NCBI GenBank assembly: GCA_035289325.1
Contig: DATDXM010000042.1
Coordinates: 1 to 43,890, forward strand
Length of the DNA stretch: 43,890 bases
Reading direction: 5' to 3'
Source of the DNA: Candidatus Nanoarchaeia archaeon
Lineage (GTDB): Archaea; Nanobdellota; Nanobdellia; Woesearchaeales; JAGLXL01
A program made the translations under genes and the position numbers. Shown here piece by piece: positions 2,957-36,319 of the stretch (position 1 is the first letter of the stretch; each line of letters starts with the position of its first letter). A model generated the notes under the pieces. It had not been told where the DNA came from. It ran no database searches and was given only the letters and a program-made list of their open reading frames with translations.

Positions 2957-3067
2957 CGTTCAGTGACACTTGTTTATAAAGATGTCGGTTTGGTTGTGCT
3001 TTTCAGGCTATCTTGCAGCTGTGCTGGAAATCGTAAGTATTATATACCAACCATATTTCTTGCGCTT

Positions 3068-3298
3068 ATGATCGAAGAAAGCTCACGCCCATTGGATGCG
3101 CTGAACGAAGCGCGCAATCGAAGAGTCATCGTTGACTGCAAGAATGGAAAGCAGTATGTCGGCAAATTGAACGCATTTGACATTCACATTAACACAGTTT
3201 TACACGACGCAGAAGAGCGTGCTGACGGCGAGATGAAAAGGAAGTTAGGCAAAATTTTTATCCGCGGCGACACAATCATAACAATTTCTCCAGAATAG
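3068..3298 (+). CDS. Sm-like (LSm) archaeal protein
   Basis: [44 protein letters not shown] ... [11 protein letters not shown] match the Sm1/Sm2 motifs. I start at the ATG at 3068 (TATA-like GTATTATATACC at 3037-3048) rather than the track start at 2963. Confidence 0.8.
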
Positions 3299-3305
3299 GT
3301 GCATC

Positions 3306-3470
3306 ATGACAAAAGGAACGCCCAGCATGGGCAAGAAAAGCGGCAAGAAGAACATGATTAGATGCAGGCGCTGCGGCAGCCGTTCTTACCACATCAGGCA
3401 TAAAGCATGCTCATCCTGTGGATTTGGCAAGAGCAAGAAATTACGTTCTTATGCTTGGCAAGTGAAGTAG
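3306..3470 (+). CDS. rpl37e: 50S ribosomal protein L37e
   Basis: Not in the ORF track (54 aa). Manual translation gives [54 protein letters not shown], with the C4 zinc ribbon typical of L37e. Confidence 0.9.
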
Positions 3471-3555
3471 GCAAATTAGTTAGAGAGTGTGCAATTGAGT
3501 CAAAGTGACACTCTTTATTAAAATAATCTTCTGTTGGTTAATGATTAAGAGATTA

Positions 3556-5573: not shown

Positions 5574-5719
5574 GCGGGGATGCCGGAGCGGTCAAACGGG
5601 TCAGGCTTAGGTCAGCATGATGTGTGCTACTCATCGCGAGATGAGCTGGTTACCGGCGGTCGTGCTGATAGAAACCTGATGGCTTAGTGCCTTCGCAGGT
5701 TCGAATCCTGCTTCCCGCA
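5574..5719 (+). tRNA. tRNA-Leu(UAG) with 62-nt intron (5612..5673) at position 37/38
   Basis: Manual fold: acceptor GCGGGGA/TTCCCGC; anticodon stem TCAGG/CCTGA; loop CTTAGG|intron|A; long variable arm TGGCTTAGTGCCTTC; T arm GCAGG-TTCGAAT-CCTGC; discriminator A. The intron ends pair (TCAGCAtG/CGTGCTGA), consistent with a bulge-helix-bulge substrate. Confidence 0.85.
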
Positions 5720-14960: not shown

Positions 14961-16340
14961 GTGGCTTGCATGGTGGATGGTCATTTTATCGGTTTAGTTC
15001 GCGATGAATTTGGACGAGTACAGAAAGTACTGTCAGATTCTGTTTATTACAGAAGCGAGCGAGGCGGGAATTATGGAGGACGCGTACGAAATCCCGGTCA
15101 ATGGTGGAGGTCAGAGAGAGTTGCACGAGTTGCTCCATTATCTGTTTCTTTGGAACAGGTTATTGATCAAAAAGTTACAGATGATTATAGGCGATTGCCT
15201 GATCACCTTAGAGAGACATTGCAGCAAGGGCTTTTGCGAACATCTGTAGAAAGAAGCACTGATTATGCTGTACTAATGAGTGTTGTTTGTGCTGATGGAA
15301 AAGTGGATGGGGGACGAACCGGCGCACTGCTCTACAGAGGAGAGCCCGTTATCGTTAACATTGATGGAAAGGAATTTGTTGTTGAAATAAAAGGGGTTGG
15401 AAGTGCTGATGGTAATAATACGCGAACTGAACCAATAGTGAGGCGCGGCTATTTTGGTATATTCAAGGAGAAATTTGGAAGCCTTGACAAAGAAGAAGGT
15501 ATGAGAGAATTAGAATGCCTTGAAGTGCAGCGAGGCTCATCTTCATTTGCTCGTGGTGATACAGTGCGTGCTGTCAGTTTGCACATATATGATAATATAG
15601 GTGATAATTATAAGCAGGCGTATCACTTGAGGCTTGCGCCAAGCACTGTTCGTGTGTCGTTCACTGGCAACCCTGCATTTCCTGAGCATGATGCACAATG
15701 TTTAGCTGAGGACATTGGACAGCAGTACGCGGAACTTGCACAGTTGGGATTTCTTCATGGTTCATTGCATGCGGAGAATGTGCTTTTTACAGGCACGCGT
15801 TATGTGATGACAGATTTTGGTGATTGCAGCAGATTAGAAGAACTCCCTGACCTGTATGATTTTTTAAGTAATACATTGAGCAGAGATAGATTCAGAGAAA
15901 TGCCTGGATTCACAAATAGACATATTGATATATTGTATGCAACGATTGCGCGGGGTTTAGGAATCTCTTATGCTTCTGAGAGAGATCTTTGGTTTATTGA
16001 TGATATCTGGTCAGGATTTTTTGCGTCGAAAGTATATGAGCTGAGAAAAGGAACGCATGTACAGGAGCATGTTGACGAAAAGAAAGCAAGTGTTCTTGAT
16101 GAGATCGAGCATGGAGACCGTGCGTGGATCGATAATAAATTACGAGTATATCCTCTTGCTTTTTTATCAAGAGAAATTCGTGTGCTCGAGCATGTTGATG
16201 CGCCAGAAGCCATTGAAAGCCTACGAATTGCACGCGAAAGGGCAGCATATCTCATGAATGCTGATGTTATAAAAGAGTTCAAAGATAATCTCGGTGCGTG
16301 GGAACAGTTGTTTTTTCTCCCGTATATGCGTTCGCGATAG
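14961..16340 (+). CDS. SelO/YdiU-like pseudokinase-fold protein (putative nucleotidyltransferase)
   Basis: FVVEIKGVGSADGNNT resembles SelO ..LKGaG.TP. LRLAPSTVRVSF resembles SelO RvAPSfiRfGsF. GFLHGSLHAENVLFTGTRYVMTDFGD resembles SelO GFvHGVmNTDNm....tIDYG. The start is GTG per the track. Assignment is from memory of SelO motifs. Confidence 0.45.
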   Translation: MACMVDGHFIGLVRDEFGRVQKVLSDSVYYRSERGGNYGGRVRNPGQWWRSERVARVAPLSVSLEQVIDQKVTDDYRRLPDHLRETLQQGLLRTSVERSTDYAVLMSVVCADGKVDGGRTGALLYRGEPVIVNIDGKEFVVEIKGVGSADGNNTRTEPIVRRGYFGIFKEKFGSLDKEEGMRELECLEVQRGSSSFARGDTVRAVSLHIYDNIGDNYKQAYHLRLAPSTVRVSFTGNPAFPEHDAQCLAEDIGQQYAELAQLGFLHGSLHAENVLFTGTRYVMTDFGDCSRLEELPDLYDFLSNTLSRDRFREMPGFTNRHIDILYATIARGLGISYASERDLWFIDDIWSGFFASKVYELRKGTHVQEHVDEKKASVLDEIEHGDRAWIDNKLRVYPLAFLSREIRVLEHVDAPEAIESLRIARERAAYLMNADVIKEFKDNLGAWEQLFFLPYMRSR

Positions 16341-16349
16341 CACACCCAC

Positions 16350-16738
16350 GCGATATTGAAAATGTCAGAAACAAGGTTTCTGAGCACGATCAGAAATCTG
16401 TGGATTTCTGACGGTTCTCGCTTAGTAATAAGCTAGTCAGCATTGCTATGCTTGACACGTACCTCGGTGCTGTCGTTCGCTCGGTCAATTTTTTTATGTG
16501 CTTTATTCACAAACACCATCAGATTAAGCTGAAGAAAATCGATTCCAACGTGCTCAGAAACTTCGTTTCTGGCACCTCGCTCACTTTGTTCGGAGGAGTC
16601 AGAACATTACCAACGCTTCGCTCAGTAAAAAGCTAGTCAGCACTGTGGTGCTCGACACGTACCTTGACAGCACACGCAAAGTTACCTTTGCTAGTCGCGT
16701 TCGGCAACTGCCTCGCGACCAACACTTTTCAATATCGC
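16350..16738. mobile_element. MITE-like element M1 (389 bp)
   Basis: The TIR is GCGATATTGAAAA(T)GT ... AC(A)CTTTTCAATATCGC. The first 125 nt differ from M2 at 3 positions, and the last 68 nt are identical to M2. The segment 16429-16483 is duplicated internally at about 16618-16672. No flanking duplication was seen. Confidence 0.6.
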
Positions 16739-16928
16739 CTCGAGGTTAGAGAATTTTTATCCAGATTCAGGGATAACGAGGGGATAAGCAATGACGAGCT
16801 TCAGGAATCTTACGAAATTAATAAGAAAGACTGTGGACTGGTGCGAGCTATTGCCCGTAGCATTATCAACCGTAATGCTCGTTCAGTTCGATAGGTTTGT
16901 CAAGAACGAGTATTACATCAGTCATAAG

Positions 16929-35560: not shown

Positions 35561-35604
35561 ACTATCACAAGAGTAATATATCTATAAAAATCTTTGTGTT
35601 TTTG

Positions 35605-35945
35605 GTACGTAATTAGTCTATTATATTTATCTTTGTAAAAATGTTGTTCTTCTCTTCTGGAGGGCAGAGCCCTCTAGAAGATACAAGAGGACTAAAAATG
35701 AAATTTTTGTCCTCTATGTATCCATGGCAGCGACTGTCAAAATTTGCGAATTTTGCCTGTTGTGAGCATAGCTCACTTCCAAATCAGTCTTTTCTACGGA
35801 AAAGATGATTCTATTTCGCACGTGCTTAGAAGCGTGGCTTCTGGCACATCAAGAAGCTGAGGCTTCTTAATGATTGTTATCGTGCTTCATCGCGCCACGA
35901 AGAACAACATTTTTACTACTATTTTACGAACGACTAATTACGTAC
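35605..35945. repeat. GC-rich hairpin element E3 (largest E-type copy)
   Basis: The outer inverted repeats are GTACGTAATTAGTC (35605-35618) and GACTAATTACGTAC (35932-35945). The inner closing stem is ATGTTGTTCTTC/GAAGAACAACAT. The interior has at least 7 hairpins, for example TCTTCTGGAGGG-CAGAG-CCCTCTAGAAGA and GTGAGC-ATA-GCTCAC. Confidence 0.6.
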
Positions 35946-35954
35946 ATATAAGCG

Positions 35955-36304
35955 GCGATATTGAAAATGTCAGAAACAAGGTTTCTGAGCACGATCAGAA
36001 ATCTGTGGATTTCTGACGGTTCTCGCTTAGTAAGAAGCTAGTCAGCATTGCTATGCTCGACACGTACCTCGGTGGTGTCAACTCGCTCGGCAAAAATCGG
36101 GATGTCAGATTAACACATTTTATGCTTTCATCCTCTTATTGATTTTTGTTCCACGAAAAAGATGCAGAGCAATAGGAAAGTAGCTACTCGTACTTCGTAC
36201 CGAGACATCGGCGCCTCGCTCGTAAATCAAAGACACCACACGCAAAGTTACCTTTGCTAGTCGCGTTCGGCAACTGCCTCGCGACCAACACTTTTCAATA
36301 TCGC
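35955..36304. mobile_element. MITE-like element M2 (350 bp) with flanking 9-10 bp direct duplication
   Basis: It has the same termini as M1. (C)ATATAAGCG occurs at 35945-35954 and again at 36305-36314, immediately outside the inverted repeats. Confidence 0.65.
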
Positions 36305-36319
36305 CATATAAGCGACATG

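Follow-up and report, generated by a model that had tools for sequence, protein, structure and literature searches.

Introduction

The pneumococcal BOX elements are built of boxA, a variable number of boxB units and boxC, and the BIME/REP repeats of E. coli form mosaics. Among prokaryotic MITEs, those whose similarity to a parent insertion sequence (IS) is limited to the ends have been reviewed, with archaeal examples from Sulfolobus, Halobacterium and Haloquadratum, and BOX elements are mentioned in the same review (PMC10969869). A marked preference for particular targets is not seen in ISH1-type elements (PMC1676026). In the full-text literature on MITE and Woesearchaeota, nothing on transposable elements is found among the matches listed.

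In this study, we have analysed two short elements, M1 and M2, in a DNA stretch of 43,890 nucleotides from a Candidatus Nanoarchaeia archaeon. This stretch, referred to below as the window, is contig C42 of the source genome (G000), which comprises 1.03 Mb in 117 contigs and is 72.5% complete. Our best explanation, which we hold to be very probable, is that M1 and M2 are IS5-derived MITEs from a past burst, now orphan and immobile, and that their near-identical ends arose by block exchange.

The family to which M1 and M2 belong (the M family) resembles the reviewed prokaryotic MITEs in many respects. Its members are 90-441 bp long, carry no ORF, have ends identical to those of an IS and make target duplications of that IS's length; they are also multicopy, intergenic, strongly folding and, as is often the case with MITEs, found in genomes without the transposase. 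Unlike the reviewed examples, however, the M family has a Woesearchaeota-type DPANN host, hairpin blocks that can be interchanged make up its interior, and these blocks, like the cores, are also found in families that have other ends and a 9-bp duplication. With BOX and BIME/REP repeats it shares a modular non-coding make-up, in which hairpin units of ~45-50 nt stand in variable number between conserved ends, as well as the clustering or nesting with other repeats. In contrast to these repeats, the M-family ends belong to an identified DDE IS and are flanked by 8-bp duplications, the modules are common to several families with unrelated ends, and there is no sequence similarity. As for ISH1-type elements, no obvious common motif is found among the target duplications.

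Results

A sequence-only reading of the window had described M1 and M2 as nearly identical copies of an element bounded by inverted repeats. By repeat search and base count, their first 125 nt (16350-16474 and 35955-36079) indeed differ at three positions (80, 104 and 121), identity extends over the whole of their last 68 nt, with the first right-end mismatch at position -69, and their centres, said to differ, are unrelated sequence. An internal duplication in M1 of about 55 nt proves to be real, but its limits had to be redrawn to the 47 nt of modules B and B' (Table 1). The terminal inverted repeats are present as well and measure 14 bp throughout the family. The first base of the M1 left end is C instead of the family's G, so that 13 of 14 positions match.

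M1 lies between convergent genes and starts 9 nt past the stop codon of a 459-aa gene (14961-16340). Its 8-bp flanks match at one of eight bases, in agreement with the earlier observation that M1 has no target duplication. The predicted single-stranded DNA folds are strong in both elements, with -70 kcal/mol for M1 (z -5.75 against shuffled controls) and -63.9 kcal/mol for M2 (z -5.51), and the central stem of M1 is followed by a T-run, TCAATTTTTTT. In an Rfam search of M1 and M2, no family reached its gathering score. Small ORFs occur within the elements (62 aa in M1, 72 aa in element C31), and we judge them to be spurious because module insertions break their frames.

M2 is placed between another element, E3, and hicB, directly upstream of the hicBA promoter; its right duplication ends 37 nt upstream of the hicB ATG (36351). 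E3 (35604-35945) is a separate element with terminal inverted repeats of ~48 nt, GGTACGTAATTAGTC... and ...GACTAATTACGTAC. A 49-nt block of E3 with two hairpins (35823-35871) is missing in one population contig (L089) and kept in others, and no direct repeat is found at its junction. This block is the sole length variation near M2 among the contigs examined. Any effect of M1 and M2 on the neighbour genes would be incidental.

Table 1. Positions of M1, M2 and their parts in the window, and of repeats on other contigs of the source genome
Feature	Position	Strand	Remark
M1, complete MITE, 391 bp including both 14-bp ends	16349-16739	+	no target duplication
M1 left terminal inverted repeat, CGCGATATTGAAAA	16349-16362	+	
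M1 module H1, two short hairpins, CAGAAAC..GTTTCTG and TCAGAAATC..GATTTCTGA	16363-16414	+	
M1 module B, 47 nt	16418-16464	+	internal duplication, copy 1
M1 core, box L to box R	16467-16673	+	
M1 box L, GTGCTGTC	16467-16474	+	
M1 central hairpin	16477-16550	+	98% identical to element C31:4999-5086
M1 bulged-hairpin block	16551-16598	+	extra block inside core
M1 module B'	16618-16664	+	extra block inside core; 40/47 identical to B
M1 box R, GACAGCAC	16666-16673	+	complement of box L
M1 module D, 47 nt, two hairpins, GCAAAG..CTTTGC and GTCGCG..CGCGAC	16674-16720	+	
M1 right terminal inverted repeat, TTTTCAATATCGCC	16726-16739	+	
M2 left target duplication, ATATAAGC	35946-35953	.	adjoins last base of E3, 35945
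M2, complete MITE, 352 bp	35954-36305	+	shell as in M1, core different
M2 module H1	35968-36019	+	
M2 module B	36023-36069	+	
M2 box L, GTGGTGTC	36072-36079	+	core of C14/C60 type
M2 box R, GACACCAC	36232-36239	+	core of C14/C60 type
M2 module D	36240-36286	+	
M2 right target duplication, ATATAAGC	36306-36313	.	7 nt upstream of TTTATAAG box
Module D recurrences	C43:694-740, C55:1875-1922, C11:18268-18315, C31:19054-19100, C21:4311-4357		
Palindromic repeats, ~97 bp	C36:3685-3781, C30:1921-2018, C5:2946-3047, C115:3540-3641, C41:613-713, C10:7375-7476		
Palindromic repeats, ~97 bp	C90:3380-3476, C62:9397-9493, C11:3208-3304, C75:2723-2821, C72:2745-2837, C3:7583-7681		

Members of the family were located by genome-wide BLAST with M1 and M2 and by a scan for the end motif. 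The search for further copies, which the sequence-only reading had called for, yields many with target duplications. With at most one mismatch, G000 contains 27 end motifs, compared with one for the reversed control, and their pairing over the whole genome gives 13 complete elements of 90-441 bp, referred to here by their contigs. One further element is split over a contig break, its two parts, which close C100 and open C11, sharing the flanking 8-mer TAACTATA, and another member is cut at the end of C99. The family in G000 thus consists of at least 14 complete elements plus contig-end fragments. Alignment of the copies defines the terminal inverted repeat as the 14 bp GGCGATATTGAAAA / TTTTCAATATCGCC, and GGCGATATTGAAAA is present at both termini of M2 and of most copies. 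GTT usually comes next, giving a 17-bp end, GGCGATATTGAAAAGTT.

Target duplications of 8 bp are perfect in 7 of the 14 copies, match at 7/8 positions in three and at 6/8 in one, and are absent in three, namely M1, C10 and C47b. The perfect ones are ATATAAGC (M2), GTCTATTT (C48), CTTACCCC (C3), GGTGGTAG (C30), GCGCTGTT (C79), AAAATCAC (C47a) and TAACTATA (C100/C11). Among 20,000 random pairs of G000 8-mers, none matches at 8/8 and 0.075% match at 7/8 or more. For M2, a flanking repeat of 9-10 bp had been proposed, and CATATAAGCG is in fact found on both sides, but comparison with the other copies shows that the duplication itself is 8 bp; CATATAAGCG is longer by a C and a G, since the inverted repeat ends in G and C, which happen to match the bases beside the target. 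We have considered recombination between copies as a cause of the missing duplications and rejected it, since the flanks of M1, C10 and C47b, compared by eye, are mutually unlike in any orientation.

Copies are found in both orientations, and by our reading of six-frame ORF lists all of them are intergenic or at extreme gene 3' ends. At C30:1800, the duplication GGTGGTAG includes the stop codon of a gene; at C103:11844, the duplication, continued by the initial G of the element, forms the stop codon TAG; and at C60:1226-1236, the last three codons and the stop are supplied by the element. Contigs of G000 (C99 end, C100 end, C11 start), G216 and G206 end ~125-140 nt inside elements, so that the family is one cause of assembly fragmentation.

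Both the end-motif scan and a search for transposase homologues took in 401 genomes of the order, and the end motif is strongly enriched in a few of them. In G003 and G216, the elements have ends as in G000 and 8-bp duplications that are perfect in 11 of 18 copies and match at 7/8 in four, but their interiors are wholly unlike those of G000, being lineage-specific and likewise modular. In G206, many contigs end ~127-140 nt inside elements that start with the end motif. One of its contigs, G206:C17 (L065/L075, Ca. Nanoarchaeia SMAG_U8128), starts exactly with GGCGATATTGAAAAGTT and contains a single ORF of 283 aa, with the right end of the IS cut by the contig end within the terminal repeat. A complete IS of 934 bp, bounded by GGCGTTATTGAAAAGTT and flanked by the 8-mer CCCAAACC in perfect duplication, is present on a 16.5-kb contig of Candidatus Woesearchaeota archaeon NC_groundwater_274 (L077). 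The earlier idea of a non-autonomous element with a DDE-type footprint is supported by the further copies with duplications and by this autonomous IS, which has the same terminal inverted repeat and the same duplication length and occurs, as had been looked for, in related archaea. The identity of the ends and of the duplication length suggests that the transposase of this IS is the one linked to the MITEs.

The 283-aa ORF matches Pfam DDE_Tnp_1 (PF01609) with 25.5 bits (cut-off 23) and NCBIfam NF033579, transpos_IS5_2, with an E-value of 5.6e-22 and 78.6 bits, which is below the curated cut-off of 140; the next-best NCBIfam families score far lower. The Pfam match marks the protein as a DDE_Tnp_1-type transposase. 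In metagenomes, the transposase has more than 100 close relatives, mostly on contigs of ~1 kb, as expected of a repeated IS. Among 72,556 plasmids, its only relatives are haloarchaeal, with 24-27% identity, and are annotated as IS5 or IS4 family. The haloarchaeal IS5 elements ISHxa2, ISHla2 and ISHma13 resemble the partner IS in having a single DDE_Tnp_1 transposase of ~275-285 aa, a length of ~935-950 bp and ends of the form GGC..T.TTGAAA; for example, ISHxa2, one of the plasmid relatives, measures ~947 bp and has ends GGCTCTGTTGAAAT that match at 10 of 14 positions. Besides the amino-acid identity of only ~24-27%, they differ in that the ISHxa2 copy examined has no duplication. In ISfinder, the ISH1 subgroup of IS5 comprises elements of 900-1150 bp with 8-bp duplications and GC at end positions 2-3, and with 934 bp, an 8-bp duplication and ends GGCG... 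the partner IS fits this description and may belong to the subgroup.

G206 (DATDXC01) has a second repeated element with ends GGCGTTATTGAAAAGTT, seen as 140-nt contig-end fragments only (C65:1-140, C27:16038-16177, C34:10159-10298 and C35:4644-4783). In its terminal 140 nt, the C-terminal peptide encoded on the reverse strand differs and carries a CxxC motif, so a second enzyme may act on the same ends.

Close homologues of the transposase (≥63% identity) occur among the 401 genomes only in G206, G253, G344, G210 and G244, with 11-14 end motifs in each of these genomes except G253, which has five. The genomes with the partner IS are those that contain long elements bearing these ends. No close homologue is found in G000, G003 or G216, which are the three genomes richest in short paired elements; G003, with 33 end motifs in 16 pairs, is 100% complete. 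In G001, of the same genus as G000, neither an end motif with zero or one mismatch nor an inverted pair is found. The sequence-only reading had noted that the window contains no transposase, and tblastn with the 283-aa protein finds no homologue in the whole of G000, so that its copies appear to be orphans. A resident transposase may lie on an unbinned short contig, G000 being 72.5% complete.

The state of the insertions in the natural population was followed by looking up the flanking proteins in public assemblies, the contigs obtained being from Rifle-aquifer samples. The M1 insertion is present in 7 independent metagenome contigs and the M2 insertion in all 4 contigs that span it, in each case with 100% identity. 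Those of C79, C48 and C30 are present in 10, 4 and 10 independent contigs, respectively, the contigs for C30 including a strain ~5% diverged. All five insertions keep the same spacing in every contig examined. Empty-site alleles, which the sequence-only reading had proposed as a sign of mobility, are found at none of these five sites in the Rifle contigs. For the C47 element, the neighbour look-up in public assemblies gave no record. Nor is an orthologous empty site found in eight other genomes of the taxonomic family, in which the M1 flanking genes have no orthologues and the M2 neighbourhood retains no conserved gene other than that for deoxyhypusine synthase. Within the natural population, all five insertions are fixed. 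That all sites are filled argues against current mobility, not against past transposition, and together with the failure to find a transposase it places the mobility in the past.

Comparison of the copies reveals how the elements are put together. The simple members C31, C103, C14, C3 and C60 (170-184 bp) consist of the left end, a linker rich in TCGCTCGG, an 8-nt box L, a central stem, a tail, box R and the right end; the loop of their central stem is ~40 nt and varies among copies. Box L and box R covary, the combinations being GTGCTGTC/GACAGCAC, GTACTGTC/GACAGTAC, GTGGTGTC/GACACCAC and GCACTGCC/GGCAGTGC, and departures from Watson-Crick pairing are seen only in C10 and C100/C11, as G:T on the strand as given. 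M1 has a C31-type core (98%) plus five extra blocks of 41-52 nt, H1, B, the bulged hairpin, B' and D; H1 is missing from the simple members of 175-184 bp. In M2, the blocks H1, B and D enclose a core of the C14/C60 type, which is 80% like that of C14. The left-hand 125 nt of M1 are 97.6% identical to M2, while its right-hand 128 nt are 98% identical to C48, and the M1/M2 differences at positions 121 (C/G) and -69 (G/C) form a compensatory box L/box R pair. In C48, 17 nt that include box L have been lost from between two TCGCTCGG motifs, which suggests that short repeats are at work.

The same blocks are found in other settings. C30, whose core is of another kind, carries a copy of module B that matches the M2 copy with 100% identity over 45 nt, and module D recurs with the same sharp boundaries (ACGCAAAG...GCGAC) in at least three other inverted-repeat families with unrelated flanks and ends. 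Its stems carry compensatory changes, from GCAAAG/CTTTGC to GCATAG/CTATGC and from GTCGCG/CGCGAC to GTCACG/CGTGAC. In addition, C27:6627-6916 is a MITE that belongs to a different family, its ends being GGGGTTGGTGCGA and its 9-bp duplication CGGTAATTC. Its interior is an M-like core, in which the central stem, the bulged hairpin and the TCGCTCGG motifs are those of the M family; end motifs of the GGGGTTGGTGCGA type are also present at C65:211 and C66:1854. G000 further contains a family of palindromic repeats of ~97 bp, with 12 copies that are 97-100% identical (Table 1). One of these is nested in the loop of the M-family element in C30 and is fixed even in the ~5% diverged strain.

Discussion

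The M family is an ordinary kind of selfish DNA, an IS5-derived MITE, with an interior that is unusual in being a patchwork. Its members have terminal inverted repeats and a duplication of fixed length, are small and multicopy without a transposase gene, and share their ends with an IS, and thus belong to the MITEs. Judging by the chemistry established for IS5-family elements, a DDE transposase would bind the terminal inverted repeats of 14-17 bp (GGCGATATTGAAAA followed by GTT), and the element would be excised and inserted at a staggered 8-bp cut, the repair of which would leave the 8-bp duplication. The enzyme would be the 283-aa transposase of the 934-bp IS5-family IS found in other Woesearchaeota / Nanoarchaeia genomes, and the G000 family would be the relic of a past burst, with the transposase gone and the tested insertions fixed. 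What the elements have in common with the IS is limited to the ends; their interior is a strongly folding patchwork in which 41-52-nt hairpin blocks are arranged around a box-bounded core.

The near-identity of the M1 and M2 ends had been ascribed to recent mobility or gene conversion. The second of these, taken to include the transfer of modules, agrees with our comparisons, while a recent jump of the whole element does not, for the cores differ. A shared shell around different cores suggests that the ends come from block exchange rather than from one element copying the other, and we favour an exchange between copies by gene conversion or template switching at short repeats. The route could have been gene conversion, template switching in repair (for example of excision gaps) or the separate insertion of blocks.

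The last of these routes, taken further, leads to another reading of M1 and M2, in which H1, B, D and the bulged-hairpin block are small mobile or site-seeking units that inserted independently into already diverged MITE cores. We regard this reading as rather unlikely, even though several observations speak for it. Relative to C31, the five extra blocks of M1 have sharp edges and no duplications; the boundaries of module D stay constant in at least three families with non-homologous flanks, with compensatory changes in its stems; the M2 and C30 copies of module B are identical around different cores; and the 49-nt block of E3 is present or absent among population contigs, with no repeat at the junction. 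However, no enzyme could be linked to the modules and no conserved target word precedes them, and one difference between copies, the 17 nt missing from C48, is explained by loss between TCGCTCGG repeats. The only Y1 transposase gene of G000, at C93:17513-18055, is of the IS200 type (PF01797, 79 bits) and is flanked by the hairpins typical of the two ends, left and right; its catalytic motif appears to be degenerate, with HVP in place of HUH, and no derived small copies of this element were found. An origin of the modules from it is rejected, as the element is present only once and its terminal hairpins bear no relation to the modules. Neither can M1 and M2 be placed in the PATE / IS200-IS605-derived class, because they have inverted ends and their family makes 8-bp duplications. 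A more general proposition is that the 41-52-nt hairpin blocks and the box-bounded cores are real evolving units, which would move seamlessly, without target duplication, between MITE families whose ends are unrelated and whose transposases differ, with duplications of 8 bp and 9 bp, while their stems are kept by compensatory changes. We consider this to be unlikely.

It might also be argued that the elements are primarily structured RNAs or DNA signals with a function for the host, such as portable oligo-T terminators or RNA-stability hairpins, and that their inverted ends are secondary. The strong predicted structure, the covariation of the boxes with G:T as the only non-Watson-Crick combinations, the T-runs after the central stem and the position of all copies between genes or at gene 3' extremities would fit such a function, and yet we find it very improbable. 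The duplications and the IS-shared ends indicate that the elements spread by transposition, the interiors in G003 and G216 are completely different despite the same ends, copies lie in both orientations and Rfam gives no match; the wobble pairs, present in only two elements, are too few to tell RNA from DNA. If transposition is accepted, the enzyme could be sought in the IS6/IS26 group rather than in IS5. G000 has an IS6-like transposase gene at C36:2705-3630, which is single-copy, has a frameshift at a run of eight A's and shows no recognisable inverted ends, and PF13610 (DDE_Tnp_IS240) matches there at 3037-3501 with 32.9 bits. The ends of IS26 are likewise 14 bp and start with GG, its duplications equal those of the M family in measuring 8 bp, and its end sequence, GGCACTGTTGCAAA, matches the M-family end at 10 of 14 positions. 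Mobilisation by an enzyme like this is nevertheless extremely unlikely, since nothing resembling GGCGATATTGAAAA (≤4 mismatches) and no terminal inverted repeat is found near the C36 gene, no IS6-type gene bounded by GGCGATATTGAAAA was seen, an IS5-family IS with the exact MITE ends and an 8-bp duplication exists, and long elements with these ends occur in genomes with that IS. Finally, contigs do break inside family members, as at C99, C100 and C11, and a collapsed or misjoined repeat had been named as one finding that would argue against mobility. The chance that M1 and M2 are such an artefact is negligible: both loci with their unique flanks are 100% identical in contigs from different samples and different assemblers (MEGAHIT-style k141, ANAN16 scaffolds and JGI), and their reproduction in independent assemblies rules out misassembly.

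With M1 and M2 as IS5-derived MITEs, the family accounts for several long intergenic spacers and contig breaks in the assembly and for the odd gene 3' ends at or in stop codons in C30, C103 and C60. It would also mean that 1-Mb DPANN genomes, too, undergo bursts of IS5-type MITEs followed by loss of the transposase, and that one set of ends has repeatedly been combined with hairpin cargo specific to each lineage. Of wider interest may be that families with different ends have modules and cores in common, which would be new if a dedicated mechanism underlies it. If the modules were evolving units, they would imply an undescribed structure-specific mechanism of insertion or exchange in DPANN archaea or, alternatively, a selected function, such as that of a portable terminator or a protein-binding hairpin. 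Elsewhere in the window, a stretch unreported by ARAGORN (5574-5719, 146 nt) matches the tRNA family of Rfam and presumably contains an intron.
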